Assembly: GCA_016710015.1 (NCBI GenBank)
Contig: JADJLR010000002.1
Coordinates: 416,365-480,364 of the forward strand
DNA from: Flavobacteriales bacterium
GTDB taxonomy: Bacteria > Bacteroidota > Bacteroidia > Flavobacteriales_F > PHOS-HE28
DNA: 64,000 nucleotides
Direction of reading: 5' to 3'
The translations under genes were made by a program, and so were the position numbers. The notes below the pieces were generated by a model that ran no database searches, had not been told where the DNA came from, and was given only the letters and a program-made list of their open reading frames with translations. The stretch's first letter is position 1. Each line of letters starts with the position of its first letter. Of this stretch, positions 5,858 to 27,408 are shown piece after piece.

Positions 5858-6094
5858 GCCGAAGCGGAATTTGGCATGGGGCGGGTTTGAAGGATCCCTC
5901 CACGGGCCAACAGGAAATGGGTGGTCCGTTCGACCAATGACGCTGCCAAGGGGGCCTTTCTGACGTTCCACCAGAACGAAATAGCCTTCCCGTCAACAAG
6001 TTCCTGTTGGTATCGCTAAGTTCGCAGACACATTACACCCCGCACGTCCCGATACTTTTGGACGCACCGGGGGTAACCCTAGCGAACATCAACC

Positions 6095-7561
6095 ATGGCG
6101 CATCAATTGGTACTTCTGATCAACCTGCTCGGGCTCCTGCTCATCGATCCATTCTTCCTAGCGGATATCAGCATCACGCAGAACGTTCCCACCAACATGG
6201 TACCGGGGAGTGAGGTTCGCGTGACCGTTACGGTGAGCAAGGCCGATCTGAGCGGATTCGCCAAATTGCAATTGGACCTCCCTCCGGGACTCACCGTCAC
6301 GGCCATTGAGACCAAGGGCGCTTCCTTCACCTTCGCCGACCAGAAAGCGAAGTTCATTTGGATGGCCTTGCCGAGCACTCCCAGCTTCAAGGTGAGTTAT
6401 ACCCTGACCTCCGATGCAACAGTAAGTGGCAACCTCGCCATCCAAGGGAGACTGTCCTACATCGAGGACAATGAGCGCAAGACCTTCGATATGCCCACGG
6501 CCACCATCGACTTCGGTGTCGGCGGAGCCGTTCAGGTTGCCGAGACCACGACCAATGAAGAGCCCGATGCGCAGGACCTCGTTTCGGCGGGAGCTGGCGC
6601 ACCTCTTGGCACCTCCGTGATGGCCGTGATCGACCAAGCGGACGGGGTGGCCCCTATTCAAGGCATGGGAGGTGTTACCGGCACCCGTACCATCACACCC
6701 GTGTCAGCGAATGAAATGCTCGTGGAGGTGATCATCAAGAAAGGCGAGATCCGTGGGTTCGGCAAGTTGCAGGAGACCATTCCACAGGGGTTCAGTGCTC
6801 TTGAAAAGACCAGTACGGAAGCCATCTTCACCACGCAGGACCGGGCGGTGAAATTCGTATGGCTCAACTTGCCTGCTGCTGCGGAGGTGCGCGTGGTGTA
6901 CAAGTTGCGCGCGAATGAACGTCCAGAAGGAGAATACAGCATTGATGGTGAATTCGGATACTTGCTGAACGACGAAACGCAAAAGGCGGTATTGGGCACA
7001 TCGAAGTTCTTTATCGGTACTCGGGCCCTCGCAGGTATGGAAGGCGATGCCAGCAGCATGGACACCATGGCAAATGTGGATCCAGCTATGGCTCAACGAG
7101 AGAGAGAGGCCAAAGAAGCTGCTGCCAAGGAAGTTGCTCGTGAAGCCGCCGCCCGCGAAGCCGAAGCCAAGCGCTTGGCAGAGCAGCGCGCACGGGAGGA
7201 AGCGGTCGCCGCCCAACAGTCCAAGCCGGTCGTAGAGCCGAAGACCACCCCACGCATTCCAACGCCGGAGACCGGGATCGTGTACAAAGTGCAGATCACT
7301 GCAGGCCATCGGGAGGTGGGCAAGAGTTACTTCAGCATCCGCCACCGTTACACGGGAGCTTTCAGCGTGGAGCGCCACCAAGGCTGGATCAAATACGTGA
7401 CCGGTCGTTTCGGTTCATACAGCGAAGCACGTGATCAACGCGTAGGCTATGTAGCTGCGGGGCACCAATTCCCTGGGCCTTTTGTAACAGCCTATAACAA
7501 CGGCGATCGGATCACCGTACAAGAGGCCCTTCTCCTGAGCAACCAGAAGTGGGTGCAATGA
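6095..7561 (+). CDS. hypothetical envelope protein: internally duplicated ~100-aa N-terminal domain, Ala/Glu-rich helical linker, C-terminal SPOR-like domain
   Basis: Two homologous segments: GSEVRVTVTVSKADLSGFAKLQLDLPPGLTVTAIE...KAKFIWMALP and EVIIKKGEIRGFGKLQETIPQGFSALE...AVKFVWLNLP. The linker reads AKEAAAKEVAREAAAREAEAKRLAEQRAREEA. The C-terminus (IVYKVQITAG...WIKYVTGRFGSYSEARDQ) fits the SPOR peptidoglycan-binding fold. Confidence 0.6.
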   Translation: MAHQLVLLINLLGLLLIDPFFLADISITQNVPTNMVPGSEVRVTVTVSKADLSGFAKLQLDLPPGLTVTAIETKGASFTFADQKAKFIWMALPSTPSFKVSYTLTSDATVSGNLAIQGRLSYIEDNERKTFDMPTATIDFGVGGAVQVAETTTNEEPDAQDLVSAGAGAPLGTSVMAVIDQADGVAPIQGMGGVTGTRTITPVSANEMLVEVIIKKGEIRGFGKLQETIPQGFSALEKTSTEAIFTTQDRAVKFVWLNLPAAAEVRVVYKLRANERPEGEYSIDGEFGYLLNDETQKAVLGTSKFFIGTRALAGMEGDASSMDTMANVDPAMAQREREAKEAAAKEVAREAAAREAEAKRLAEQRAREEAVAAQQSKPVVEPKTTPRIPTPETGIVYKVQITAGHREVGKSYFSIRHRYTGAFSVERHQGWIKYVTGRFGSYSEARDQRVGYVAAGHQFPGPFVTAYNNGDRITVQEALLLSNQKWVQ

Positions 7562-7582
7562 TGTGACCTTGAAACGGAACGA

Positions 7583-9685
7583 ATGCCCAAATACCACGGT
7601 CTTAGCAACCTGTTCCGTTCCGTCCTCGGCCTTTCGCTGGCCTTCTTCTTGTCCCCTTCTCTTTCCCTTGCCCAAGCGGATAGCACAGCACTGCCGCCGG
7701 GTATCTCGGCTCCCAAGGAGGAACTCCCGATCAAATTGAAGCCCACTTTCGGGATCGGTCCGGGCATGCTCGCATTCTATGGCGATGTTGGCAACGATCA
7801 CAGCGCATACAGCCCGTTGGTGACCCGTGTTGGGTACGAGTTGCGGGCCACCACCCCGATCACCCCTTGGCTCGAAGGCGGCATCTATGCCCTGCACGGC
7901 CGACTCGGCGTGAACGAACGCAGCCTTACACGCAACCTCAACTTCGAGTCGCGCATTACCACGGGGGGGGTGCAGTTCCGTTACAATTTCCTGCAACTCC
8001 TCAACCCGTCTAGGGTGGTTGAACCTTACGTGACCGTCGGATTCGAATCCGTTGAATACCTGACCAAGACCGATCTCCGCGACGCACAAGGCCGCACCTA
8101 CCACTACTGGAGCGACGGCACCATTCGGGACATCGACGAGCAAGCATTGAATGCGGGCGATGCCGTGTTGATCCAGCGCGATCACACCTACGAAAGCGAT
8201 GTCCGCGAATCCAACCTCGATGGATTCGGGAAGTACCTCGAGCGCACTTGGGCCGTCCCGGTGGGCATCGGTGCGCGAATGGACATCGGACACGGATTCG
8301 ACTTCCGCATGGGGGCCACCATGCACTTCACCCTCACCGACCTTATGGATGGTGTCACCGAAGAAAGCGTGAACGACCGTAAGGGTACCGTCGGCAACGA
8401 CCGCTTCCTCTTCACCTCCTTCTCCATCGGTTATACCATCCCGATAGAACGTGGGTCAAAGAAGACCAAAAAGACCCCACTCTCCAGTGAAGAGGTGGAC
8501 GTGCTGGCGTGGATGGGTGATGAGGACTCCGATGGTGTGCAGGACATTTACGACAAGTGCCCTTATACGCCCGCAGGCGTGGCCGTTGATGCATTTGGCT
8601 GTCCGTTGGATGGTGATGCGGATGGTGTTCCGGATCATCTGGATGATGAATTGGATTCCGCACCTGGTGCCTTTGTGGATGCGCACGGCGTTACCGTGAG
8701 CGACGAAGGCTTGCTGAAAGGCTGGCTGGCCTACAAGGATTCGGGCAATGTGAATTACGTGACTTCCCGCGTGGAGTCCTTCGGCCCGATGAAGCCCAAG
8801 GTGGTGCCCGTGAAACGGGTGTACGTGGTGAAGGTGGGTTCGCAAATGGAGAAGATCAGTGAAGAGGTGATCCAGAAACTCCTGAGCCTGCCCGATATCC
8901 GAACCGTGGAAAATGGCGATACCACTTTCTTCGTGGTGGGCAGCTATGACAAGATCCCCGAAGCGCTGCGTCGGGAATTGGATCTGCGTAGTCTGGGTGT
9001 GGAAGGCGTGGTGATGGCCGAGGAGAACGGTCGTTTGATCGATGTGAGTGAGGAGACCGACCCGTTGCGCGTAGAAACTGGATCAGTGCCGAATACCCCA
9101 CCACCCGTTGGCGAGATCATCATCCGTGTCCAGCTCGGCGCTTTCCGCTATCCGTTATCGCGCAACATCTTCGTGGGTATCAGCGATCTGGTCACGATCA
9201 AGGGTGATGATGGTCTCACGCGATACTACACCGGTTCCTTCACGGAGGTGAATCCTGCCGCGCAACACAAGGTGAACATGTTGCTGAGAGGCTTCAACGG
9301 TGCATTCCTAGTGGCCTTCCGCGATGGTAAGCGGATCAGCATGAAGGATGCGGGAGCCAGCCTGACCGGACCCGAAGACCTCCGCAACGTACCTAGCGGC
9401 AGCATCGATAAGAGCCTGTTGCGTTACCGTGTGCAAGTAGGCACCTTCGTGGGTAACGTACCGATCGAAACCATGGGCCGAATGATCGAAATGGGCGATA
9501 TCCGTCCGATCACCAGTTCCGATGCCGTGCGCTACTTCTACGGGCAGTTCAAGGATCGCAAGTCCGCTGAGGATGCCAAGATCGCGATCCAGAAGGAAGG
9601 CTTCACCGATGCCTTCGTCGTAGGCGACATGAACGGCTACATTATCCCAGCGGAGGATGCCGATGGGTTGATGAAGCAACCATAG
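7583..9685 (+). CDS. outer-membrane beta-barrel protein with thrombospondin type-3 (TSP3) Ca-binding repeats and three SPOR-like domains
   Basis: Signal peptide MPKYHGLSNLFRSVLGLSLAFFLSPSLSLAQA. The N-terminus is OmpA-like barrel in character. The TSP3 run reads DSDGVQDIYDKCPYTPAGVAVDAFGCPLDGDADGVPDHLDDELD. Three C-terminal modules each open with a YxVxVGxF-type motif (YVVKVGSQ, IIRVQLGAFRY, RYRVQVGTFVG). The gene lies 22 nt downstream of the previous gene and is likely co-transcribed. Confidence 0.65.
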   Translation: MPKYHGLSNLFRSVLGLSLAFFLSPSLSLAQADSTALPPGISAPKEELPIKLKPTFGIGPGMLAFYGDVGNDHSAYSPLVTRVGYELRATTPITPWLEGGIYALHGRLGVNERSLTRNLNFESRITTGGVQFRYNFLQLLNPSRVVEPYVTVGFESVEYLTKTDLRDAQGRTYHYWSDGTIRDIDEQALNAGDAVLIQRDHTYESDVRESNLDGFGKYLERTWAVPVGIGARMDIGHGFDFRMGATMHFTLTDLMDGVTEESVNDRKGTVGNDRFLFTSFSIGYTIPIERGSKKTKKTPLSSEEVDVLAWMGDEDSDGVQDIYDKCPYTPAGVAVDAFGCPLDGDADGVPDHLDDELDSAPGAFVDAHGVTVSDEGLLKGWLAYKDSGNVNYVTSRVESFGPMKPKVVPVKRVYVVKVGSQMEKISEEVIQKLLSLPDIRTVENGDTTFFVVGSYDKIPEALRRELDLRSLGVEGVVMAEENGRLIDVSEETDPLRVETGSVPNTPPPVGEIIIRVQLGAFRYPLSRNIFVGISDLVTIKGDDGLTRYYTGSFTEVNPAAQHKVNMLLRGFNGAFLVAFRDGKRISMKDAGASLTGPEDLRNVPSGSIDKSLLRYRVQVGTFVGNVPIETMGRMIEMGDIRPITSSDAVRYFYGQFKDRKSAEDAKIAIQKEGFTDAFVVGDMNGYIIPAEDADGLMKQP

Positions 9686-9783
9686 ACCGGAAACGAAGAC
9701 ACGATCGATCTCGGATGCAATAGCGTCCAGATAATAGTCGTTCGGAATGCGTGGCACTACCTTGCCGCTTCATCTCCACCGTC

Positions 9784-12700
9784 ATGCACACCCGATCCTG
9801 GCCACGCCTTGTCAGCGCTGCTACGCTTACCGTATGGCTCTTCACTGGATGCCGAGATCACGGAGTTGTTGCACCGGATGCGGCCTACACACCATACATC
9901 CCGGCCTTCACCGCAGGCCACATCAGCGCAACCTCCCCGATCCTGGTCCGCATCGCGGATGGTCAACAATGGCGCGATTCCTCCAATGCAGCGATCCAGG
10001 GCCTGTTCGACTTGAGCCCCTCGGTAAAGGGAAGCGTGACGTGGAAAGACCAGAGTACACTCGCCTTTGTGCCGAACGAACGCCTTCAGCAAGAGGAAAC
10101 CTATACCGTCACCTTTCACCTTGGGGATCTGATCGTGTTGCCCACAGGTTTGGATGATTTCCGATGGCAGGTCAACACGGTCCGCCAGAGCCTCGATGTG
10201 CGCGTGAGTGACATGCAGTCCCTTTCGGCGTCCGACCTTACGTGGCAGCGGCTGATCGTCGCGGTGCATTCGGGCGATGTGATCGGAAAGGAGGTCGGCA
10301 GTTGCTTCACCGTTACACAAGGCGGACGAACGTTGGCCTTGAATTGGGTCCACGAACCGAACGGTCGTTTCCATACATTCTCCGTAGATAGTGTGCAGCG
10401 CGGCGAAACTGCCAGCACCGTAGAGATCAGCTGGAACGGAAAGCGTATAGGTGCCGCAGAGGAAGGCATGCTCCCCTTTTCCGTTCCGGCCATCGGTGAT
10501 CTGGCCTTGATCTCCGCGATCACGGATTCCGAAGGGGAACAGAGCGCGACCCTGCTCTTCTCCGATCCCTTGGATGCTTCACAGAACATGGATGGTTTGG
10601 TGGGCATATCCGGATCCGACGGGATCCGCCTTTCGGTGGAGGGGAACAAGCTGATGCTTTACCCAACCGAGCGCCTCAGCGGCGATCGGCAAGCTTATGT
10701 GGCGGCCGCCATCCGCAATGTGAACCGAAGACCACTGGGCAAGGACATCACGGTGGAACTCACCTTCGAGGAACTCAAACCGGCCGTTCGGATGGTCGGG
10801 AAAGGCGTGATCCTCCCCTCTTCTGATGGTCTAGTGATGCCCTTCGAAGCCGTGAATCTCAAAGCGGTGGATGTACGCGTGGTGAAGATCTACGAAAGCA
10901 ACATCACCCAATTCCTGCAACGCAATGCACTGGATGGCGCGAACGAATTGGCACGCGTTGGTCGACTCATCACACGCAAGACCATTCCGCTGAATACCGC
11001 CGATGCACCGGATCTGGGGCGCTGGAACACGTTCTACTTGGATCTCGCCGAGCACATGAAGGCCGAACAAGGCGCGATCTATCGGGTGGAACTCTCCTTC
11101 ACCCGAAAGCACTCCGTTTATCCGTGTACCAATGCCGATGACGCGACGGTCGAGCTGGAACGGGAACGCACTTGGGAAGAGGAACAGGCCGCCTACGATC
11201 AGGTCCAGGACTACTGGTATTACGACGACTACTATTACGAGGACTACGACTATCGCGAACGCGAGGACCCGTGTACGCCTTCCTACTTCGCGAACAACCA
11301 TTCCACGGCGCGCAACATCCTGGCCTCGGACCTGGGCTTGATCGCAAAGGGCGGCAACGATGGTTCCCTGTTGATCGCGGTGAGCGATCTACGGACCACT
11401 GCACCACTGTCTGGCGTGAAGCTGGATGTGTTGGACCTCCAGCGCAAGAGCCTCGGCCAAGCCGTTACCGATGGAGAAGGACTGGCCACCTTTCCCAACA
11501 ACACCCACAAGCCCTTCCTCGTGGTGGCCAGCAAAGGTAGCCAACGCGGCTATTTGCGGTTGGATGACGGATCCTCGCTTTCCGTAAGTGAATTCGATGT
11601 GCAGGGCGCTGCGATCGATCGCGGGCTGAAGGGTCTTCTGTACGGGGAACGCGGCGTTTGGCGTCCCGGTGATTCGCTCTACCTCGCTTTCATGTTACAA
11701 GATGCACAACACAAGCTCCCGAAGGATCATCCAGTGGTACTGGAGCTTACCGATCCCCGGGGCCGGATCGACCAGAAGCATGTGCGCACCGCATCGGTGA
11801 ATGGCGTGTACGCATTCCGCATGGCGACCTCCACGGATGCACCGACCGGCGTTTGGCATGCGCGGGTGGTGGTCGGTGGCACGAGCTTCCACAAGAGCCT
11901 TCGGATCGAAACCGTGAAACCGAATCGCCTCAAGATCCACATGGACCTGGGCGAACGTTTGACCGTTGCGGATAGCAAAGGCGTTACCCTCCGCTCGATC
12001 TGGCTGCACGGCTCGCCCGCTAAAGGGCTCAAGGCACGAGTCACCGTGACCATGTCTGCAGCCGCGCCGGTGTTCAAGGGTTTCAAGGAATTCACCTTCA
12101 ACGATCTGCGGACCTCCGTTCCCCAAGAAGAACAAGTGGCATACGATGGTGTGTTGAACGACCAGGGCGAAACGCGTTTCGACATGGACTTGCAACCCGG
12201 ACGGAACGCCCCAGCCATGGTGAATACGAACATCGTAACGCGCGTGTTCGAAGCCGGAGGTGATGCCAGCATGGATCGCACCTCGGTACCCTACTACCCG
12301 TATGTGAGCTACGCCGGGATCCGCCTCCCGGAAGCATTCAACGCATGGGGTGGTCTGGTCACGGACACCACCTACCAATTCGCGATCGCCGCAGTGGATG
12401 CCCATGGCGCACCCCTTTCCGGACATGCCCTGAAAGCGCAAGTGTACAAGTTGAAACAGAATTGGTGGTGGGATGGCGATCTGGAAGGCGATGCCAATTA
12501 CATCAGTTCGCCGAGCGTTGAATTGCGGCAGGAATTCGAGCTGGTGACCGATCCCAAAGGCCGAACGACGCTCAAGTTCCGGGTGGATCGTCCGGATTGG
12601 GGGCGTTTCGCTGTGCGCGTTTCCGATCCAGCTAGCGGACATTCAAGTGCCGTTCAATTGTACTTGGATTGGCCGGGTTGGGAGGGCCGCTCACGCCGCG

Positions 12701-15360
12701 AGGATCCCGACCAAGCCGCCAGACTCAGCTTCAACAGCGACAAGGAGAAGTACCATGTGGGAGACAACGCTACTTTGATCATCCCCTCCAGCGGAACCGG
12801 GCGCGCGTTGGTGAGCTTGGAAACGGGAAGTCGCTGTTTGGATGCGGTCTGGGTGGAGTTGAAGACGAAGGAAACACGGTATTCCTTCCCGGTGACCGCC
12901 GACATGGCACCGAACGTGTACGCGCACGTAACCGTCGTACAGCCACACGCACGCACGCTCAACGACCTGCCCATTCGGATGTACGGTGTGATCCCCATCC
13001 TAGTGGAAGATGCTGCAACACATCTCGCGCCCGTGATCACCATGGCGAAGGAGGTGAAGACCGATGTGCCGTTCACAGTTGAAGTGAGCGAGCAGAACGG
13101 TGATCCCATGACCTATACGTTGGCCATTGTGGACGAAGGTCTGCTGGACCTTACCCGATCCAAGACACCCGATCCGTGGAACCACTTCTACGCCCGGGAA
13201 GCATTGGGTGTGCGCACCTGGGACCTCTATGATCACGTGATAGGTGCGTTCGCGAAACAGATCGCACGAGTGTTGGCCTTGGGTGGTAGCGACGATGCCG
13301 GACCCGCGGAGAATGCCAAAGCCAACCGGTTCAAGCCAGTGGTGAGGTACGTGGGGCCCTTCACCTTGCAACGGGGAAAGAAGGCCAAGCATGAATTCAC
13401 CATCGCCAATTACGTCGGATCCGTACGCGTGATGGTGGTTGCTACCGATGGCGACAAAGCGTACGGCAATGCGGAGAAGGCGGTCCCGGTGAAGAAGCCA
13501 TTGATGGTGCTCGCCACACTCCCCCGAGTGCTTTCACCCGGTGAGGTTGCTGATCTGCCCGTGACCGTCTTCGCCATGGATCCTAAAGTGAAGGACGTTC
13601 GCGTTCGCTTGGAACCGAATGAATTCCTGATCCCCGAAGGACCATTGGAGAAGACGATCCACTTCAGTTCCACCGGTGATCAAGTGGTCCGCTTCAAGGT
13701 TCGCGTGAAGGAAGCGATCGGTGTTGCGAAAGTGAAGGTGAGTGTTTCCGGTGCCGGAGAAAGCGCTTCCGAACGCATTGAATTGGATGTCCGTTTGCCG
13801 AATTTGCCTGCAACAGAAGTCACGGAAGTGTTACTGGAACCGGGTAAAAGTTGGAGTGCAGCACCTGTGCCTTTGGGTGTGGCAGGCACCAACAGTGCTT
13901 ACTTGGAAGTGAGTACGATACCTCCTGTGGACCTCGGCCGGCGCCTACAGTATCTGGTGGATTATCCGCACGGATGTTTGGAACAGACCACGTCGAAGGT
14001 CTTCCCGCAACTCTACATCGGTAAGGTGATGGAACTGCCTGCGCGCTTCCAACAGAGCATGCGCGCCAATGTGGAAGCAGGGCTGCAAAAGATGGCGCAG
14101 TTCCAGCGAAGTGATGGATCCTTCAACTACTGGCCCGGTGGCGATCATTACGATGATTGGACATCGATCTATGCAGGGCACTTCATGGTAGAGGCCGAAC
14201 GTGAAGGTCTGAAGACCGTGGGTCGCACCTTGCCGAATTGGCTCGCCTATCAGCGGAAGGCTGCGCGGGACTGGCAGGCAAGACAGCAGAATGGTTGGTC
14301 GATCGAATCCACTCAGTTCATTCAGGCCTATCGCCTCTATGTGCTCGCGTTGGCCAAACACCCCGAACTGGCGGCGATGAATCGCTTGCGCGAACAAGGA
14401 TCACTCAGCACACGCTCCCGTTGGATACTCGCCGCCGCCTACGCGCAGATCGGTCAATTGGATGCTGCAAAGAGGCTCACATTGGCCAGCGAACTTTCGA
14501 TCCCGGCCTATTCGGAAATGGGATATACCTACGGCAGTGCGTTGCGTGACGAAGCCATGATCGCCCTCGCCTTGATGCACATGGACGAGACCGCCAAGGC
14601 AGCGGGAATGGTGCAACGCATTTCCAAGGACCTCAGTAGTGGTGGCTGGTACAGCACCCAGAGCACGGCATTCGCGCTGCTGGCTGTTGCCCGTTTTGCG
14701 GAGAAGAGCCAGTTGGACAAGGGCCTTTCCTTCAAACTGGAACTTGAGGGCAAAGCCACCGACCGTTTCACCGAGAAAGCGATCAGCCGTGTTGAGCTCG
14801 CCACGCCGAATGGAAAGGACCACGTGAAGGTGACGAACACCGGCAAGAACCTCCTGTACGTGCGTTTGGTCCGCAACGGAACGCCATTGGCCGGTGCAGA
14901 GGATCCCACATCGAGCGGGTTGAATATGCAGGTCGAATACACGCTGATGGATGGTAAGCGTGTGGATCCCGCACGGATCGAACAAGGCACGGACTTCAAG
15001 GCCACGGTGCGCATCATGCATCCCGGGGTGGCAGCGAACTACCAGCAATTGGCGCTGACCAACGTCTTCCCTTCCGGTTGGGAGATCCGGAACAACCGCT
15101 TGGAGGGAAGTGAAGGGGCCATCGCCGCATCCAGTTACACTTACCAGGATCTGCGCGATGATCGCGTGATGACCTACTTCGACCTCTGGCGTGGAAAGTC
15201 CGTGACCTATGAAGTGATGCTCAACGCAGCCTATACCGGGCGCTACTATCTACCCGGTGCGTTCTGCGAAGCGATGTACGACCTTACGATCAATGCACGG
15301 ACCATGGGTCGGTGGGTGGAAGTAGTGCCATCGGGCGAACCATCAGCGGCGCAACAGTGA
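9784..15360 (+). CDS. bacterial alpha-2-macroglobulin family lipoprotein (thioester-containing)
   Basis: The lipobox LTVWLFTGC follows ATG at 9784. Intact thioester motif GCLEQ (YPHGCLEQTTSKVFPQLY). Size is about 1860 aa with MG-domain-like repeats. It is immediately followed by pbpC, the classical A2M–PBP1C pairing. Confidence 0.9.
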   Translation: MHTRSWPRLVSAATLTVWLFTGCRDHGVVAPDAAYTPYIPAFTAGHISATSPILVRIADGQQWRDSSNAAIQGLFDLSPSVKGSVTWKDQSTLAFVPNERLQQEETYTVTFHLGDLIVLPTGLDDFRWQVNTVRQSLDVRVSDMQSLSASDLTWQRLIVAVHSGDVIGKEVGSCFTVTQGGRTLALNWVHEPNGRFHTFSVDSVQRGETASTVEISWNGKRIGAAEEGMLPFSVPAIGDLALISAITDSEGEQSATLLFSDPLDASQNMDGLVGISGSDGIRLSVEGNKLMLYPTERLSGDRQAYVAAAIRNVNRRPLGKDITVELTFEELKPAVRMVGKGVILPSSDGLVMPFEAVNLKAVDVRVVKIYESNITQFLQRNALDGANELARVGRLITRKTIPLNTADAPDLGRWNTFYLDLAEHMKAEQGAIYRVELSFTRKHSVYPCTNADDATVELERERTWEEEQAAYDQVQDYWYYDDYYYEDYDYREREDPCTPSYFANNHSTARNILASDLGLIAKGGNDGSLLIAVSDLRTTAPLSGVKLDVLDLQRKSLGQAVTDGEGLATFPNNTHKPFLVVASKGSQRGYLRLDDGSSLSVSEFDVQGAAIDRGLKGLLYGERGVWRPGDSLYLAFMLQDAQHKLPKDHPVVLELTDPRGRIDQKHVRTASVNGVYAFRMATSTDAPTGVWHARVVVGGTSFHKSLRIETVKPNRLKIHMDLGERLTVADSKGVTLRSIWLHGSPAKGLKARVTVTMSAAAPVFKGFKEFTFNDLRTSVPQEEQVAYDGVLNDQGETRFDMDLQPGRNAPAMVNTNIVTRVFEAGGDASMDRTSVPYYPYVSYAGIRLPEAFNAWGGLVTDTTYQFAIAAVDAHGAPLSGHALKAQVYKLKQNWWWDGDLEGDANYISSPSVELRQEFELVTDPKGRTTLKFRVDRPDWGRFAVRVSDPASGHSSAVQLYLDWPGWEGRSRREDPDQAARLSFNSDKEKYHVGDNATLIIPSSGTGRALVSLETGSRCLDAVWVELKTKETRYSFPVTADMAPNVYAHVTVVQPHARTLNDLPIRMYGVIPILVEDAATHLAPVITMAKEVKTDVPFTVEVSEQNGDPMTYTLAIVDEGLLDLTRSKTPDPWNHFYAREALGVRTWDLYDHVIGAFAKQIARVLALGGSDDAGPAENAKANRFKPVVRYVGPFTLQRGKKAKHEFTIANYVGSVRVMVVATDGDKAYGNAEKAVPVKKPLMVLATLPRVLSPGEVADLPVTVFAMDPKVKDVRVRLEPNEFLIPEGPLEKTIHFSSTGDQVVRFKVRVKEAIGVAKVKVSVSGAGESASERIELDVRLPNLPATEVTEVLLEPGKSWSAAPVPLGVAGTNSAYLEVSTIPPVDLGRRLQYLVDYPHGCLEQTTSKVFPQLYIGKVMELPARFQQSMRANVEAGLQKMAQFQRSDGSFNYWPGGDHYDDWTSIYAGHFMVEAEREGLKTVGRTLPNWLAYQRKAARDWQARQQNGWSIESTQFIQAYRLYVLALAKHPELAAMNRLREQGSLSTRSRWILAAAYAQIGQLDAAKRLTLASELSIPAYSEMGYTYGSALRDEAMIALALMHMDETAKAAGMVQRISKDLSSGGWYSTQSTAFALLAVARFAEKSQLDKGLSFKLELEGKATDRFTEKAISRVELATPNGKDHVKVTNTGKNLLYVRLVRNGTPLAGAEDPTSSGLNMQVEYTLMDGKRVDPARIEQGTDFKATVRIMHPGVAANYQQLALTNVFPSGWEIRNNRLEGSEGAIAASSYTYQDLRDDRVMTYFDLWRGKSVTYEVMLNAAYTGRYYLPGAFCEAMYDLTINARTMGRWVEVVPSGEPSAAQQ

Positions 15361-15366
15361 TCGCCG

Positions 15367-17685
15367 ATGGGATCCGGTAGGCGCAAGGTGTTGATCACCA
15401 TCGCTGCCTTTGGTGTGCTCTTCGTTTGGGCGCGTTGGGGACCGATGGACCCCTTGTTTCAGAAACCCCGAAGCACCGTTCTGCTGGACCGGGACGGAGA
15501 CTTGCTCGGTGCCACGGTGGCGTTGGATGGTCAGTGGCGCATGCCTCCGAGCGATTCGGTACCGCATCGTTTCGAAACGTGTTTGCTCGCTTTCGAGGAT
15601 CGGCACTTCCGCTCCCACCCCGGCATCCACCTTCCTTCACTGATCCGTGCGGCAAAACAGAATTGGCATGCCGGTCGCATCGTCAGCGGGGGAAGTACGA
15701 TCACCATGCAAGTCGCACGCATGGCCCATGGCGATCGGCCGCGAACGGTCTGGAACAAGGCGGTGGAGATTTGCGCGGCTTTGCGCTACGAGGTCCGGTT
15801 TTCGAAGGACTCCATCCTTGCGCTGTATGCTGCCAACGCGCCATTCGGCGGGAATGTGGTCGGACTTGAGGCCGCTGCTTGGCGCTGGTTCGGTCGATCA
15901 CCGGACCAACTGGGTTGGGCCGAATGTGCCGCACTCGCCGTGCTCCCCAACGCACCGGCACGGATCCATCCGGCACGGCAACGCGATGCACTACGCGACA
16001 AACGTGATCGCTTGCTGGAGTACTTGCGCGATACCGGAGTACTCGATAGCATGACCTGTTCGCTGGCCCGTGCAGAACCCCTCCCGGAGCGACCGATCGA
16101 CCTACCCCGATCGGCTCCGCACGCCCTAGCGACCTTGGAGTTATCCGGTCATCGTGGCCAGCGCATCACCAGTACGCTCGACCCGGATCTACAGCGCCGC
16201 GTCACCGCGATCGCCGACCGACATGGACCGATCCTTCGTGCGAACGAAGTACACAACGCGGCAGTGCTCATTCTCGATGTACCCAGCGGAAAGGTCCTCG
16301 CCTATATCGGCAACCTTCCGCAAACCTCGGCCGAACATGCTGGAGAAGTCGACATCATCCAAGCCCGACGTAGCACTGGAAGCTTGTTGAAACCCTTCCT
16401 CTATGCGGACATGCTGCAATGCGGCGAAATGATGCCCGACCAGCTTGTTGCCGATCTGCCCACGCATTACCAAGGCTTCTCACCCAAGAACTTCGACGCC
16501 CGGTTCGACGGTGCTGTACCAGCGGCAGCCGCACTCGCCCGCTCGCTCAACGTTCCAGCCGTGCGTGCATTACACCGCCATGGCATTGAACGCACCTTGC
16601 GCATGCTACGCGCCATGGGACTGGAACATGTGGACCGTACGGCCGAGAACTATGGCCTTTCGTTGATCATCGGTGGTGCGGAAAGCACACTTTGGGAACT
16701 CACCGGCGCATTCGCCTCCATGGCGCGGACGGTTCTTGTTCCATCGGAAGTAGAACCAGTCCATGCGCCGCAGCTTGTGGAAGGCGAGTACGCTTCGGCT
16801 ACCTCAGCGGTTCTTTCAGCAGCATCCGCATACCATACGATCCAAGCCCTGCATGCGGTACACCGCCCAGGCTCGGAATCTGGCTGGCAGTATTTCGCGG
16901 ATCCGAAATACATCGCTTGGAAGTCCGGAACCAGTTTTGGCCACCGCGATGCTTGGGCCATCGGGTTCACCGACCGGTTCGCTGTCGGAGTGTGGACGGG
17001 GAATGCAGATGGTGAAGGCCGGCCCGGACATACGGGTACGTTGGCCGCAGCGCCGATGCTCTTCGACGTGTTCGACCTGTTGCCCAATGGTCACGGGTTC
17101 GACACGCCATTCGATGGCATGGAACGCACTGCGGTCTGCCGAGCCACTGGATTCCGCGCTGGTCCGGATTGTCTCCCTGTCGATACGCTTTGGGTGATCC
17201 GCGAAAGCGAACGCACAGCACCGTGCCCCTATCATCATCGCATTTTGGTGAATGCAACGGAGGATCACCAAGTTGGTCCGGACGCGCATGGACATTGGGT
17301 GAATTGGTTCTCCCTTCCACCGGCCATGGAACACTACTACCGAAAGGTCCATCCAGAGTACCGACCACTGCCGCCTGCCCCAAGTGGTCCGCGCGAAACC
17401 CCCATGGAACTGATCTACCCAGGCCCCGATGCACGCATCCACATCCCGGTGCAACTGGATGGAACCTTTGCCCAGGTGGTACTGATGGCCGCACATCGCG
17501 ATCCATCTGCTCTCTTGAACTGGGACTTGGATGGCGAATTCGTAGGACGCACACAGAGTGAACATGAACTCGTAGTGGATCTGGTCACCGGGCCGCACCG
17601 ATTAACTTTGACCGATCAGCAAGGTCTTTCGTTGACCGCCACTTTCCACGTGGTCCGAAGCGACACCCAGCAGCAGAACGAATGA
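15367..17685 (+). CDS. pbpC: penicillin-binding protein 1C (bifunctional glycosyltransferase/transpeptidase)
   Basis: GT51 motifs EDRHFRSHPGI and GGSTITMQVARM. Transpeptidase motifs include WKSGTS (KTG) and SxxK/SxN-type regions. It starts 7 nt after the A2M stop. Confidence 0.9.
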   Translation: MGSGRRKVLITIAAFGVLFVWARWGPMDPLFQKPRSTVLLDRDGDLLGATVALDGQWRMPPSDSVPHRFETCLLAFEDRHFRSHPGIHLPSLIRAAKQNWHAGRIVSGGSTITMQVARMAHGDRPRTVWNKAVEICAALRYEVRFSKDSILALYAANAPFGGNVVGLEAAAWRWFGRSPDQLGWAECAALAVLPNAPARIHPARQRDALRDKRDRLLEYLRDTGVLDSMTCSLARAEPLPERPIDLPRSAPHALATLELSGHRGQRITSTLDPDLQRRVTAIADRHGPILRANEVHNAAVLILDVPSGKVLAYIGNLPQTSAEHAGEVDIIQARRSTGSLLKPFLYADMLQCGEMMPDQLVADLPTHYQGFSPKNFDARFDGAVPAAAALARSLNVPAVRALHRHGIERTLRMLRAMGLEHVDRTAENYGLSLIIGGAESTLWELTGAFASMARTVLVPSEVEPVHAPQLVEGEYASATSAVLSAASAYHTIQALHAVHRPGSESGWQYFADPKYIAWKSGTSFGHRDAWAIGFTDRFAVGVWTGNADGEGRPGHTGTLAAAPMLFDVFDLLPNGHGFDTPFDGMERTAVCRATGFRAGPDCLPVDTLWVIRESERTAPCPYHHRILVNATEDHQVGPDAHGHWVNWFSLPPAMEHYYRKVHPEYRPLPPAPSGPRETPMELIYPGPDARIHIPVQLDGTFAQVVLMAAHRDPSALLNWDLDGEFVGRTQSEHELVVDLVTGPHRLTLTDQQGLSLTATFHVVRSDTQQQNE

Positions 17686-23316: not shown

Positions 23317-25776
23317 ATGAAGTACAAGCACTTAGTGATAGGAATTCTGACATGGTGCTGCCTATACCCGATGCTTGGCCTCGGTCAGGATCTCACATTG
23401 CAAAGTGGTTGGCCAGGGGCCAACGGGCATATCCGAGCCATGGTCCTTGATCCTGCAACCGACGTGCTCTATGTTGGAGGGACCTTCACTGAAGTGGACG
23501 GCTCGCCAAGGACTAGACTGGCCGCCTTTGATGCCGTGACCGGTAACCTTCTCCCGTGGTCGCCGTCGGCAAATGACGGTGTCTTTGCCATGGCCATTCA
23601 TGATGGCACGTTGTACATCGGGGGTGATTTCACTGAACTTGCTGGCGAAGTCCGAGGCCGTTTGGGTGCTTTCGACCTTGCCACTGGCGATCTGACGACC
23701 TGGGCACCCAGCGTGAACGCTACTGTATTCAGCATCCTCGCTGGCAGCATTGCCATCCACGTGGCCGGTGACCTGACCGTCGCCAATGGTGTTACCCGAA
23801 ACCGCGTTGGCGCTTTCCACCCCACAACAGGAGCGCTACTTCCTTGGAACCCGAATGTGACCGGGTTCGTTCGTACACTGCTCCGTGATAACAGTTCGAT
23901 CTTGATCGGAGGCACCTTCACCCTTGTGGGAGGCCAAGCCCGGACCATGCTGGCCGAGGTGGATGACGCCATTGGTACGTTGTCACCATGGGATCCTGCG
24001 CCCAACGGTACCGTGCTTTCCTTGATCATGCATGGCGGAACGGTGTATTGCGGAGGTAGCTTCACGTCCATTGGTGGCATACCACGCACCTCACTTGCAG
24101 CCATCGACCGCGCCACTGGAATACCGACTTCTTGGGCACCCTCGGTCAATGGAGCGGTGAATCAATTATGTATCTGGAACGATAACCTGATCATTGGCGG
24201 CTTCATGTCCCAAGTACAGGGTCTGGCGAACCAGCATTTGGCTTCGTATTCGATCGCTACGGGAGTGCTCAATACACCGCCGCCTGCTCCATCCTCTACG
24301 GTCTATGCTATGGTGGTTCACGGTGACGAACTATACACTGGTGGCGTTTTCACCCTGATCAACCCGAACATCCCGCGCTTACGCTTCGCGGCATGGAGCC
24401 TTTGTCAACCCACCACGTGGTATGCCGACGGGGATGGTGATGGACTTGGGGACCCTAGCGTTCAAGAGGTTGCGTGCACTGCGCCCACCGGCTTCGTGGG
24501 CAACAACGACGATTGCAACGATAGTGATCCGGAGCTCCTAGGGCCCACGCTGTGGTTCGCGGATAGTGATAACGACGGCGCCGGAGATGCGAACATGACC
24601 ACATTAGCGTGCGTCGCGCCGCCCGGATATGTGCACAATAGCGATGACTGCGACGACGGCGACCCCGAACTGATCAGCCTTACGATCTGGTATTTGGATG
24701 GTGATGGCGATGGCTACGGGAACATCTTCGCCCCGACCCAACTGGCTTGCGGCGCACCCGCAGGCTATGTGGACAACCCCGATGATTGTAACGATTCGAA
24801 CCCGAACATCCACACCATCCGGAATTGGTTCGCGGATACCGACGAGGACGGTTTCGGAGACCCCTTGATCCCACTTAGCGCCTGCAACCAGCCTCCTGGC
24901 TTTGTGGCCGATTCCACCGACTGTGACGACGACGACCAGCTTTGGTTCATCGGGGCAGCATGCGATGATGGCGACCCAGCTACGGAAGGCGATGTGGTCG
25001 AAGCGGATTGTGTCTGTCGGGGATCGGGGGTCCAAGTGGAGGTGCGTGTCTGGTTGGAAGGGGCGTACACCCCCGGAAGCCTGATGTCCGCTTCCCTTTT
25101 CCAGAACGGTCTGATCCCTTTGACGGAACCCTATACGGCATTGGGCTACACCCATATCGGTGGTGGCGGCGAAACCACCACAATGCAAATGCTCGACCCC
25201 TTCCCTGGCACGGATGAACACACCGCCGTGGATTGGGTAGTGCTGGAATTGAGGGATCAGAATCAACCATCATTGATCGTGGCAACCCAATCATGCATCC
25301 TTCGACGGAACGGACTGATCACCCGGACGGACGGCTTGGACCTACCAGTATTCATGGTGGCCGCTGATGTATACTTCGTTGCCGTGCGGCACAGAAACCA
25401 CCTGGGGTTTCATAGTCTATTCCCTGTGAACCTCGGAGTACCGATCCCCCCAGTCGTGGATTTCGCATCCGGCCAAACCGCGACAGCCGGCACCAATGCC
25501 CTCAAGCCCATGGGGCAGCGCATGGTAATGTGGTCCGGTGATGCGCAATTCGATCGGAATCTGAAGTACACCGGATCGGCGAACGACCGAGATCTGATCC
25601 TACAACGCATCGGTGGCATAGTACCAACGAATACGGTGAGCGGATACTATCCAGAGGATCTGAATTTGGATGGTCAGGTCCGATACACCGGCACGAACAA
25701 CGACCGGGATCTGATCCTACAGAACATCGGAGGAGTGGTACCTACCACCATCCGCTACGACCAACTCCCGAACTAG
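23317..25776 (+). CDS. secreted multi-repeat protein: ~9 beta-propeller-like ~47-aa repeats, MopE-like putative metal-binding repeats, C-terminal dockerin-like duplicated Ca-binding motif
   Basis: Signal peptide MKYKHLVIGILTWCCLYPMLGLGQ. Repeats L(L/T)PWxPxxNGxVxxxxxxGxxLYxGGxFTxxxGxxRxxLAAxD. Four or five W(Y/F)ADxDxDGxGD...C blocks (WYADGDGDGLGD, WFADSDNDGAGD, WYLDGDGDGYGN, WFADTDEDGFGD). The tail carries two copies of NDRDLILQ(R/N)IGG(I/V)VPT, each preceded by a D-x-D/N-x-D-G-like segment. Confidence 0.65.
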   Translation: MKYKHLVIGILTWCCLYPMLGLGQDLTLQSGWPGANGHIRAMVLDPATDVLYVGGTFTEVDGSPRTRLAAFDAVTGNLLPWSPSANDGVFAMAIHDGTLYIGGDFTELAGEVRGRLGAFDLATGDLTTWAPSVNATVFSILAGSIAIHVAGDLTVANGVTRNRVGAFHPTTGALLPWNPNVTGFVRTLLRDNSSILIGGTFTLVGGQARTMLAEVDDAIGTLSPWDPAPNGTVLSLIMHGGTVYCGGSFTSIGGIPRTSLAAIDRATGIPTSWAPSVNGAVNQLCIWNDNLIIGGFMSQVQGLANQHLASYSIATGVLNTPPPAPSSTVYAMVVHGDELYTGGVFTLINPNIPRLRFAAWSLCQPTTWYADGDGDGLGDPSVQEVACTAPTGFVGNNDDCNDSDPELLGPTLWFADSDNDGAGDANMTTLACVAPPGYVHNSDDCDDGDPELISLTIWYLDGDGDGYGNIFAPTQLACGAPAGYVDNPDDCNDSNPNIHTIRNWFADTDEDGFGDPLIPLSACNQPPGFVADSTDCDDDDQLWFIGAACDDGDPATEGDVVEADCVCRGSGVQVEVRVWLEGAYTPGSLMSASLFQNGLIPLTEPYTALGYTHIGGGGETTTMQMLDPFPGTDEHTAVDWVVLELRDQNQPSLIVATQSCILRRNGLITRTDGLDLPVFMVAADVYFVAVRHRNHLGFHSLFPVNLGVPIPPVVDFASGQTATAGTNALKPMGQRMVMWSGDAQFDRNLKYTGSANDRDLILQRIGGIVPTNTVSGYYPEDLNLDGQVRYTGTNNDRDLILQNIGGVVPTTIRYDQLPN

Positions 25777-25830
25777 GAGGCGCGAATATCTCGTACGGAA
25801 CCTTCAACCCCATGGCCCCGTTGAAAGGCC

Positions 25831-27408
25831 ATGGACCCACGCACCTTGGTCATGCTTTTGGCACTGGCCGGAAGCCAGCTGCATGCGCAGGACTTTGTTC
25901 TGGACCCTTCATTCGGAACAAATGGCGTGGCCTATCAGCCTGGTCCGGAGCCATACAGCGGCGCATCTCCGCTTGTTATGGAGACCCTTCCCGATGGTGG
26001 ATTCCTCAGCCTGCATAGTGCAGGTGTGGACGCTATAAAGGTCATGCGCTGCACGCCGAACGGCAAACCGGATAGCAGCTTCGCGATCAATGGGCACTTC
26101 ATCCTCGCTCCGCCTTCCATCGGACTAATCCCTTCAGGTATGGTGGTGCGGCCGGATGGGAAGATCATCATTACCGCGACCGGCCTTTTTCAAGGCACGA
26201 ACGATCCGAAAATCTTCATCTGTCAACTCCTGCCGAACGGAGTGCCGGATCCTTCCTTTGGAGTGGACGGCGTTCTCTACTACAATATGCCCGTGTACCA
26301 GATCCTTCGGGACGCAGTGCTTCAGACGGACGGGAAGATCTTGGTGGCCGGCGGTTCGTCCGGCTCCATGTTCGTAAGCCGTTTCCTACCCAATGGGGAT
26401 CTGGACCTATCCTTCGCCACGAACGGTATCGGACTATACAACCCACCCGGCGTAACGGCTTCGGCCAAAACGATCGCCTTGGGTCCTGATGGTAGCATCT
26501 ACGTTGGCGGTTTCAAATCCATTGGTGCTGATGCCTCGGCATGGGTCGTGGCAAAGGCCGCCCCGAACGGTGTCCTCGATCCGTCATTCGGCGATGGCGG
26601 TATCTTCTTCTTGGACCACGTGCCCGACCAATCCACCATGTCCAACAAACCGGAGTGCATCATGGACCTGATGGTACTGGATGACGGTTCGCTGATCGCG
26701 GGTGGCTATGTGGCACTTTCCGACACTTGGGAACGCTTGGCCATAATGAAATTGGATGCTTTCGGCCAAGCCGTGCACGAATTCGGTGATAACGGACGGA
26801 TCTATGCCGGCACACTTCCAGAGGGCCGGTACTTAGGCAAAGAGTTGGTGTATGACCCTACCGGGTTATTCATCTTGGTCGGATCGATGCTTACCTTGGA
26901 CAATAGGAAGGAGGTTGTGATCCTGGCCTTCGATGGGATGGGCACTGTGCTGGATCAGAATGGCAGCAACGCGCCATTTCAGTTTCAGCCTGAGGTCCAG
27001 ATGCAGTTGACCACTTGCGGCACCTTCGACCTTCAAGGCCGATTGATCGTGGCCGTGAGCCATTGGAACCAACCCGAAGGCAGATCATCCTTCATCGCAT
27101 TCAACTTCGATATCAATGTCGGCTCGAATGAATTCCCGGAAAACTCCATCGGCCTTTCCGCTTGGCCCAATCCCACCTCGGGTCAATTGAGTATTTCCTA
27201 TGACCTGCAGGCTGCTTCCAAGGTATCCGTAGATTTATTGGATGTATCCGGACGAACGGTGGAGCGGTCACTCACGAACGCGCACAGGAGCTCAGGTGCG
27301 CAATTGGAACACCTGTCCCTCGACCCCTCCCTATCCAGTGGCACGTACCACCTCAGGGTACGGACCGGAGCTGGCTCCTGGACACGAACAGTTGTTATCG
27401 ATCGGTAG
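25831..27408 (+). CDS. delta-60 repeat beta-propeller protein with T9SS type A C-terminal sorting domain
   Basis: Signal peptide MDPRTLVMLLALAGSQLHAQ. Repeated DPSFG(x)NG / DSSFAINGH / DLSFATNG motifs (TIGR02608-like). C-terminus reads WPNPTSGQLSISYDL...VDLLDVSGRTV...SGTYHLRVRTGAGSWTRTVVI (Por_Secre_tail). Confidence 0.8.
   Translation: MDPRTLVMLLALAGSQLHAQDFVLDPSFGTNGVAYQPGPEPYSGASPLVMETLPDGGFLSLHSAGVDAIKVMRCTPNGKPDSSFAINGHFILAPPSIGLIPSGMVVRPDGKIIITATGLFQGTNDPKIFICQLLPNGVPDPSFGVDGVLYYNMPVYQILRDAVLQTDGKILVAGGSSGSMFVSRFLPNGDLDLSFATNGIGLYNPPGVTASAKTIALGPDGSIYVGGFKSIGADASAWVVAKAAPNGVLDPSFGDGGIFFLDHVPDQSTMSNKPECIMDLMVLDDGSLIAGGYVALSDTWERLAIMKLDAFGQAVHEFGDNGRIYAGTLPEGRYLGKELVYDPTGLFILVGSMLTLDNRKEVVILAFDGMGTVLDQNGSNAPFQFQPEVQMQLTTCGTFDLQGRLIVAVSHWNQPEGRSSFIAFNFDINVGSNEFPENSIGLSAWPNPTSGQLSISYDLQAASKVSVDLLDVSGRTVERSLTNAHRSSGAQLEHLSLDPSLSSGTYHLRVRTGAGSWTRTVVIDR

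Follow-up and report, generated by a model that had tools for sequence, protein, structure and literature searches.

A predicted outer-membrane barrel protein with a SPOR-type tail and its conserved upstream neighbour in a Flavobacteriales genome

Links between the outer membrane and the cell wall are known to be made by OmpA_C-type domains, as in OmpA and Pal, or by the covalently attached Lpp. The known SPOR proteins are, to our knowledge, either inner-membrane bitopic proteins or lipoproteins. Here we describe two adjoining genes, geneA and geneB, from the genome of a Flavobacteriales bacterium (contig JADJLR010000002.1), of which geneB has the architecture of an OmpA-like anchor and a SPOR protein recombined, a combination that is widespread rather than rare. 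The window, meaning the whole stretch of DNA that was analysed, is 64 kb long with an even G+C content of about 57%, and all coordinates given here are positions in it. The open reading frames (ORFs) of geneA (488 aa) and geneB (700 aa) are both on the plus strand, 21 nt apart (Table 1), at the coordinates that a preliminary description had given them. Searches with the two products each led to a "hypothetical protein" with 100% identity, encoded in an uncultured Flavobacteriales metagenome-assembled genome (MAG). We think it probable that geneB is an integral outer-membrane barrel that tethers the membrane non-covalently to peptide-free glycan, and that geneA is its exported partner.

Among described proteins, geneB is most readily compared to the OmpA-family anchors of the Bacteroidota, for example the protein of PDB entry 5wtl. 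They too have a signal peptide, an eight-stranded barrel, Cys-containing DxDxDG thrombospondin type 3 (TSP3) repeats, and a wall-binding end in the periplasm, and the NCBIfam PA1041-type anchor, which consists of a TSP3 and an OmpA_C part, has the TSP3 in common with geneB. The difference is in the tail, where geneB lacks OmpA_C (PF00691) and has an array of SPOR-fold modules instead. SPOR domains recognise peptide-free glycan (PMC6895207), whereas the OmpA_C anchors bind the stem-peptide region of the wall. RlpA is similar to geneB in being attached to the outer membrane and in reaching the septal denuded glycan through SPOR (PMC6895207), but it is lipid-anchored, with a catalytic DPBB lytic-transglycosylase domain and a single SPOR domain, as compared to the integral barrel, the lack of an enzyme domain, and the three modules of geneB. 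The small barrels PorG and DUF6089 are matched by the last three barrel strands of geneB (PorG at E 4e-11), and many distant relatives have PF19573 on record, but PorG has neither TSP3 nor a SPOR tail. The geneA product is reminiscent of FtsN, DedD, and DamX, the bitopic inner-membrane proteins of E. coli, in its N-terminal hydrophobic segment, its long linker or helix, and its C-terminal SPOR or SPOR-like module with a Gln and a basic residue. Unlike these, it has no charged cytoplasmic tail and it contains two DUF11/CLIPPER-like sandwiches. CLIPPER (DUF11) stalks have been described from fibrillar adhesins (bioRxiv 10.1101/2025.04.25.650565), where they are part of a long surface adhesin, as opposed to the periplasmic, SPOR-linked context in geneA.

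The AlphaFold2 model of geneB, made from 62 family sequences, has a mean predicted local distance difference test score (pLDDT) of 73. It shows a signal helix at residues 9-23, eight long strands (55-66, 82-92, 97-113, 118-135, 146-161, 218-236, 239-250, and 274-285), an irregular Asp-rich stretch at about 300-372 that is confidently modelled, and then a helix at 374-386. When the PDB was searched by Foldseek the top matches were all eight-stranded outer-membrane barrels, the OmpA transmembrane domain 9fzc (target TM-score 0.77), 1bxw, Ail, NspA, OmpW, OmpX, and OprF-N, and the eight-stranded N-terminal barrel that is typical of the OmpA family is thus found in geneB both by the model and by Foldseek. 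Because of the eight modelled strands and the matches to OmpA, Ail, and OmpX, geneB is predicted to have a barrel fold with a periplasmic C-terminus. By analogy with the topology of OmpA the entire C-terminal part would be located in the periplasm, since the number of strands is even. The N-termini of the family are variable, classical signal peptides ending in A-x-A/Q (the slash marks the cleavage site), and the invariant Gln31 at position +1 agrees with the Q-rule of the Bacteroidetes (PMC5837995). Pfam OMP_b-brl matches residues 54-158 with 20.7 to 24.8 bits (cut-off 28.7) and DUF6089 (PF19573) residues 220-286 with 18.4 bits (cut-off 23.2), and relatives exceed the cut-off in both cases. 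The barrel, for which the preliminary description had proposed a Pfam/HHpred check, is in this way recognised from the eight strands and the OmpA-type Foldseek matches, with OMP_b-brl staying below its cut-off. PorG was tried as an identity for geneB and ruled out, as the equivalog NF052316 gave 43.3 bits against a cut-off of 130, and over residues 217-286 only.

Between strands 5 and 6 there is an insertion, residues 162-217, which is among the most conserved parts of the whole family. Y173, Y175, W176, D178, G179, R199, D200, and D213-Y218 are invariant in it, and it is partly modelled at low confidence. Such strong conservation is odd for an exposed loop, which suggests that it is a plug or a binding site. 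The TSP3 region after the barrel contains the DxDxDGxxDxxD motif twice in full, its aspartates being invariant, and Cys326 and Cys340 are conserved. Pfam TSP_3 (PF02412) reaches 19 bits at residues 313-330 (cut-off 25) and is on record for several relatives, the NCBIfam PA1041-type anchor model matches the region at E 3e-7, and the family profile of the region matches the TSP3 repeats of the "OmpA family protein" in PDB 5wtl at E 7.5e-4. The preliminary description, which had read a signal peptide, a barrel-like region, and TSP3 repeats from the letters, was right about this layout. It was also right about the missing OmpA_C domain, for which there is no Pfam match in geneB even at E<=1; the C-terminal 290 residues are taken up by three SPOR-fold modules.

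In the model the three modules lie at residues 413-487, 512-585, and 614-689 and have the same beta-alpha-beta-beta-alpha-beta-beta order. Profile-profile comparison by hhalign related module 2 to module 3 with 97.5% probability (E 5e-12) and module 1 to module 3 with 96.3% (E 2e-9), while the comparison of module 1 to module 2 was weak. Such values lie well outside what chance would give, and the three modules are homologues of each other. According to Alcorlo et al. 2019 (PMC6895207) SPOR domains are about 70 aa long and share less than 20% pairwise identity but a common ribonucleoprotein (RNP)-type fold, an antiparallel sheet with two helices on one face. The RNP-type order beta-alpha-beta-beta-alpha-beta is predicted alike in the three geneB modules and in the C-terminus of geneA, with a pLDDT of about 80-90. 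In the window geneB itself, Pfam SPOR (PF05036) matches only residues 615-680, with 18.1 to 20.6 bits against a cut-off of 21, and module 2 gives no match at E<=10. The family members are more informative. Module 3 is matched by Pfam SPOR in 17 of 17 members (best E 8e-7), and PF05036 is recorded for the majority of relatives; module 2 is matched at E<=1 in 15 of 17 (best E 1e-3), and module 1 in a single one of the 17 (E 0.14). Aligned to the SPOR domain of FtsN (1uta), module 3 has its Gln and Arg in register, with RVQVGTF over MVQCGSF and VRYFYG over NRVVIG of FtsN.

The contacts between a SPOR domain and the denuded glycan are mostly made by the backbone, and the few side chains involved are a conserved Gln in beta1 and a basic patch (PMC6895207). 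The positions in register with these are invariant in module 2 (Q517 and R547) and in module 3 (Q618 and R650), and in module 1 they are occupied by Lys417 and Phe449. This is not a peculiarity of the present geneB. In a survey of about 130 distant representatives, the Gln was kept in 38 of 129 first modules, 125 of 140 middle modules, and 113 of 129 last modules, and the basic residue in 8 of 129, 122 of 140, and 106 of 129, respectively, so module 1 has lost both residues family-wide. Their retention in the middle and last modules, as opposed to the first, points to ligand binding as a selected function of the distal modules. We would describe the array as a degenerate module with the SPOR fold and, after it, two SPOR domains that are predicted to be ligand-competent. 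The "triple SPOR" of the preliminary description is therefore right for module 3 and, with weaker matches, for module 2, but not for module 1; its suggestion to confirm all three with Pfam SPOR gives the one match below the cut-off in the window geneB, and the 17, 15, and 1 of 17 seen among the relatives.

The geneA product was less easy to place. All of its 693 homologues are named "hypothetical", none has a Pfam domain on record, and a full-length HMMER profile found no match among the PDB sequences. The AlphaFold2 model (mean pLDDT 76) consists of an N-terminal helix at residues 2-21, two beta-sandwiches at 25-140 and 195-307, a helix at 331-372, and a C-terminal beta-alpha-beta-beta-alpha-beta-beta module at 395-482. 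The two sandwiches are copies of each other (24-140 against 192-308, hhalign 99.4%, E 2e-21, 29% identity), and family profiles were needed to see this, as BLAST of the single sequence against itself did not detect the internal repeats. DUF11/CLIPPER (PF01345) matches the repeats below the Pfam cut-off of 24.6 bits. The first strand of both repeats lacks an evident Lys, which makes the Lys-Asn isopeptide bond with a catalytic Asp that goes with this domain doubtful. The C-terminal module is related to module 2 of geneB (hhalign 96.5%, E 1e-9) and has Q400 and K433 in register with Q517 and R547; Q400, W431, and K433 are invariant. Pfam SPOR matches this module in 2 of 16 members, at best with E 0.025. 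The duplicated domain, the Ala/Glu-rich helix, and the single SPOR-like end that had been pointed out from the letters alone are consequently all there. The N-terminus follows the pattern MxNQLVLLINxxGLLLxDxF..AD.SITQN, which has no positive charge and is far better conserved than signal peptides usually are, and the segment may stay in place as an anchor instead of being cleaved off as a signal. Two other identities were tried for geneA. DedD (NCBIfam NF008641) was ruled out, with 11.7 bits against a cut-off of 150 and only the low-complexity Ala/Glu-rich helix matching, and so was an origin of the repeats from MG domains of alpha-2-macroglobulin (A2M), which was raised by weak bMG10 matches in 28 of 55 members, as hhalign against the A2M of the window gave a probability below 1%.

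Table 1. Positions of the features of geneA and geneB in the window.
Feature	Position	Strand	Basis
Bacteroidota-type -7 promoter motif TAnnTTTG (TACTTTTG)	6053..6060	+	34 nt before the geneA ATG, in a 237-nt intergenic region
geneA, envelope protein with two beta-sandwich repeats, helix, and SPOR-like C-terminus	6095..7561	+	ORF, AlphaFold2 model
geneA residues 1-22, conserved uncharged hydrophobic helix, export signal or membrane anchor	6095..6160	+	model helix 2-21, conservation
geneA repeat 1, residues 24-140, DUF11/CLIPPER-like (CnaA-like) beta-sandwich	6164..6514	+	
geneA repeat 2, residues 192-308, second beta-sandwich copy	6668..7018	+	hhalign, AlphaFold2 model
geneA residues 331-372, long Ala/Glu/Arg-rich helix	7085..7210	+	AlphaFold2 model, sequence
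geneA residues 392-485, divergent SPOR-like module with Gln400 and Lys433	7268..7549	+	model order, hhalign
geneB, predicted outer-membrane barrel, TSP3 linker, and three SPOR-type modules	7583..9685	+	ORF, AlphaFold2 model
geneB residues 1-30, signal peptide with A-x-A/Q cleavage site	7583..7672	+	helix 9-23, invariant Gln31, family N-termini
geneB residues 50-290, predicted eight-stranded beta-barrel (OmpA/DUF6089/PorG-like)	7730..8452	+	AlphaFold2 strands, Foldseek, Pfam
geneB residues 162-217, conserved 56-aa insertion, predicted surface loop L3	8066..8233	+	strand order, conservation
geneB residues 300-372, two TSP3-like calcium-binding motifs (DxDxDGxxDxxD), Cys326 and Cys340	8480..8698	+	Pfam/NCBIfam, profile, Asp pattern
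geneB residues 408-492, module 1, SPOR fold without ligand residues	8804..9058	+	hhalign to module 3
geneB residues 507-590, module 2, SPOR domain, RVQLGAFR motif	9101..9352	+	hhalign, Pfam SPOR in relatives
geneB residues 609-694, module 3, bona fide SPOR domain	9407..9664	+	Pfam SPOR, FtsN alignment

That geneB belongs to a large family was seen when 1.84 billion representatives at 50% identity were searched exhaustively with a profile. There were 1,045 matches at E<=1e-30 among these representatives, more than 100 of them end-to-end, and at least 577 species-representative genomes encode a relative; the best 80 of these are all uncultured Flavobacteriales or Bacteroidota MAGs. Thus the arrangement, which the preliminary description had called unusual, is not rare, and it is unusual only in relation to the biology that has been characterised. 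The search from the most divergent full-length member reached the Crocinitomicaceae, where many members have DUF6089, TSP_3, and SPOR on record, and included the cultured Crocinitomix catalasitica, with a "thrombospondin type 3 repeat-containing protein". The names in the databases are all automatic (hypothetical, SPOR domain-containing, TSP3 repeat-containing, or outer membrane beta-barrel protein), and NCBI already names some members "SPOR domain-containing protein" in this way. No paper that describes the architecture came up in full-text searches that combined SPOR with thrombospondin or beta-barrel for the Bacteroidetes. The family is large and conserved.

Local domain parsing of the top 149 relatives gave a barrel, a TSP segment, and 1 to about 8 SPOR-like modules, and the commonest form, with three modules in the same order as in geneB, was seen in 69 of the 149. 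Members such as P0305 (1,185 aa), P0309 (1,691 aa), and P0319 (1,639 aa) either have as many as eight SPOR-like modules or have about 800 aa of unassigned sequence inserted after the first module, before the distal array. There are also a few relatives in which the front end of barrel and TSP3 is kept and the tail is of another kind, with LysM-like repeats in P0385 and EF-hand-like segments in P0384, P0387, and P0388. It seems that the combination of barrel and TSP3 serves as a platform to which one periplasmic tail or another can be joined.

Taken together, these features suggest how geneB may work. It would be exported by its Sec signal peptide and inserted in the outer membrane as an eight-stranded OmpA-type barrel, leaving the C-terminal two thirds of the protein in the periplasm, where the calcium-binding TSP3 linker and the short helix would bear the three SPOR-fold modules. 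The distal modules 2 and 3, with their Gln and basic residue, would bind glycan from which amidases have stripped the stem peptides (denuded glycan), and thereby tie the outer membrane to the wall wherever such glycan occurs. In the bacteria studied, denuded glycan is found mainly at the division septum, and it is reasonable to infer, as the preliminary description did for the pair, that geneB may act as a tether to the septal wall. Module 1, which has lost its ligand residues, may function as a spacer or in protein contact, and so may the TSP3 segment, which would be stabilised by calcium. The geneA product would be an exported partner, anchored or released by way of its hydrophobic N-terminus and aimed at the same substrate as geneB, and its tools for this would be two stalk-type sandwiches, a long helix, and one SPOR-like module. 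A direct contact between the two proteins is conceivable. That LysM, another peptidoglycan binder, replaces the SPOR tail in distant relatives supports the logic of a membrane anchor with a wall-binding tail.

Several observations weigh against this model. Every Pfam and NCBIfam match on geneA and geneB themselves is below the curated cut-off, and the recognition of their domains is based on family profiles, on relatives that pass the cut-offs, and on predicted structure. When HMMER profiles of modules 1 and 2 and of the geneA C-terminus were run against the PDB sequences, no SPOR structure was found and all matches were at chance level, and the profile of module 3 matched FtsN only at E ~1. 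The SPOR fold is read from the predicted order of secondary structure elements, and the match lists of the fold searches were taken up by the barrel of geneB or the sandwiches of geneA and not by the SPOR modules. The export and topology of geneA are uncertain because its N-terminus is uncharged and unusually conserved. Furthermore, geneA is absent in the Crocinitomix relatives, and the partnership is therefore not essential to the design of a barrel with SPOR modules. The gene upstream of geneB in these relatives (L081, 5535-6896; L083, 5526-6902) encodes instead a protein of about 455 aa with TPR and PD40 (TolB-like) repeats.

In the loci related to the window geneA immediately precedes geneB wherever there is room for it, in 73 of 73 cases, and the pairing is universal in, and specific to, this clade. 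The two genes are followed on the plus strand by genes for a bacterial A2M of 1,869 aa, a PBP1C-type penicillin-binding protein, and an S41 Ctp protease, and the gaps from geneA through geneB and A2M to PBP1C are 21, 65, and 6 nt. It is likely that geneA and geneB are co-transcribed, and it is possible that the transcript extends to A2M and PBP1C. TAnnTTTG is an established -7 motif of sigma-A promoters in Bacteroidota, and the match in front of geneA is a putative promoter element. The motif is depleted in the window, with 3 matches as compared to the expected 12.5 +/- 3.3, and none of 100 shuffled sequences contained fewer matches than the window does; besides the one at 6053-6060 on the plus strand there are matches at 11532-11539 on the minus strand and, near the end of PBP1C, at 17603-17610 on the plus strand. 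A sigma-70 promoter scan gave 0 sites, and no convincing terminator was found, as the terminator-like matches were at chance level and inside coding sequence.

A2M follows geneB in 53 of the 65 related loci with room for it, and one could imagine that geneA, geneB, A2M, and PBP1C form a four-gene unit for defence and repair of the envelope, in which the SPOR arrays mark wall that is damaged or processed by amidases. Their task would then be to bring A2M, as a protease trap, and PBP1C, as a repair synthase, to such sites, and not cell division as such. The common strand and the short gaps speak for such a unit, as does the fact that the only plus-strand TAnnTTTG motifs of the region precede geneA (6053) and sit near the end of PBP1C (17603). 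A2M is also present within 2 kb in the locus of the very distant homologue P0356 (L082), the SLT lytic transglycosylase, PBP1C, and the Ctp protease are in the neighbourhood of the pair, and the SPOR proteins DamX and DedD of E. coli are reported to stimulate class A penicillin-binding proteins (PMC7642682). We nevertheless regard both the unit and the positioning role as rather unlikely. The synteny is mostly among close relatives, where it may reflect shared ancestry only. GeneA and geneB are kept without A2M in several loci (L020, L021, L023, and L024), there is no A2M nearby in the Crocinitomix relatives, and in the P0356 locus A2M is on the opposite strand. SLT and GT4 are also nearby in that locus, in a rearranged order, and the gene upstream of the homologue encodes a protein with a type IX secretion system (T9SS) tail. 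The idea can be carried further, to a single operon encoding a device for surveillance and repair across the envelope. The barrel and its anchored partner would home to peptide-free glycan and place A2M and PBP1C at septal or damaged wall, with the degenerate module 1 and the conserved surface loop mediating the protein contacts, but as a whole this joint reading seems quite improbable to us.

GeneB could also do the job of OmpA and Pal all around the cell, as a general, non-septal stabiliser of the outer membrane with SPOR as a generic glycan-binding tail. Its front end of barrel and TSP3 is the same as in the OmpA-family anchors, the tail is interchangeable with LysM in relatives, and a module number that varies from 1 to about 8 suggests tuning of avidity and not a precise role in the divisome. 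However, the SPOR domains that have been characterised so far are all reported to bind denuded glycan and to accumulate at septa (PMC6895207; bioRxiv 10.1101/2022.07.01.498525), and the specificity residues are conserved in modules 2 and 3, which makes a general stabiliser unlikely. Finally, the RNP fold serves many ligands, and the SPOR-like modules may have been re-purposed for binding a protein or another polymer, in which case the pair would not be a wall tether at all. This applies above all to module 1, which is without both ligand residues, and to the geneA C-terminus, both being essentially invisible to Pfam SPOR. Since modules 2 and 3 keep the Gln/Arg signature and match Pfam SPOR across the family, and the geneA module has the invariant Gln400, Trp431, and Lys433, we find re-purposing very hard to believe.

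If geneB is a tether to denuded glycan as proposed, its SPOR array would link an integral barrel, and with it the outer membrane, directly to glycan that has been processed by amidases, mainly at the septum. This would give the outer membrane a simple alternative way of keeping up with septal constriction. The family is a natural experiment in modular envelope anchors, in that its first module is systematically degenerate, its modules vary in number, and its tails are exchanged between SPOR, LysM, and EF-hand-like segments, and it is experimentally tractable since a cultured relative exists in Crocinitomix catalasitica. That A2M and PBP1C are encoded next to geneB also gives a starting point, open to testing, for learning how these two poorly understood proteins are used. 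Should the trans-envelope device turn out to be real, it would be the first functional partner system for bacterial A2M and PBP1C, and would include the first integral outer-membrane SPOR protein.

Other genes in the window can be mentioned briefly. Upstream of geneA, on the same strand, are genes for a GT4 glycosyltransferase, an SLT lytic transglycosylase, a UvrA-like ORF (a label from sequence alone), and a LOG-family protein, with SLT at 905-2209 and GT4 at 9-1247. A2M and PBP1C occupy 9751-17685 and meet at the junction 15360/15367, and A2M is of the lipoprotein type, with the lipobox LFTGC at the N-terminus. Further downstream, at 23317-27408, there are two adjoining ORFs with DUF5122 beta-propeller repeats. 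The second of these has a C-terminal T9SS sorting domain (Por_Secre_tail), from which it follows that the organism has type IX secretion.

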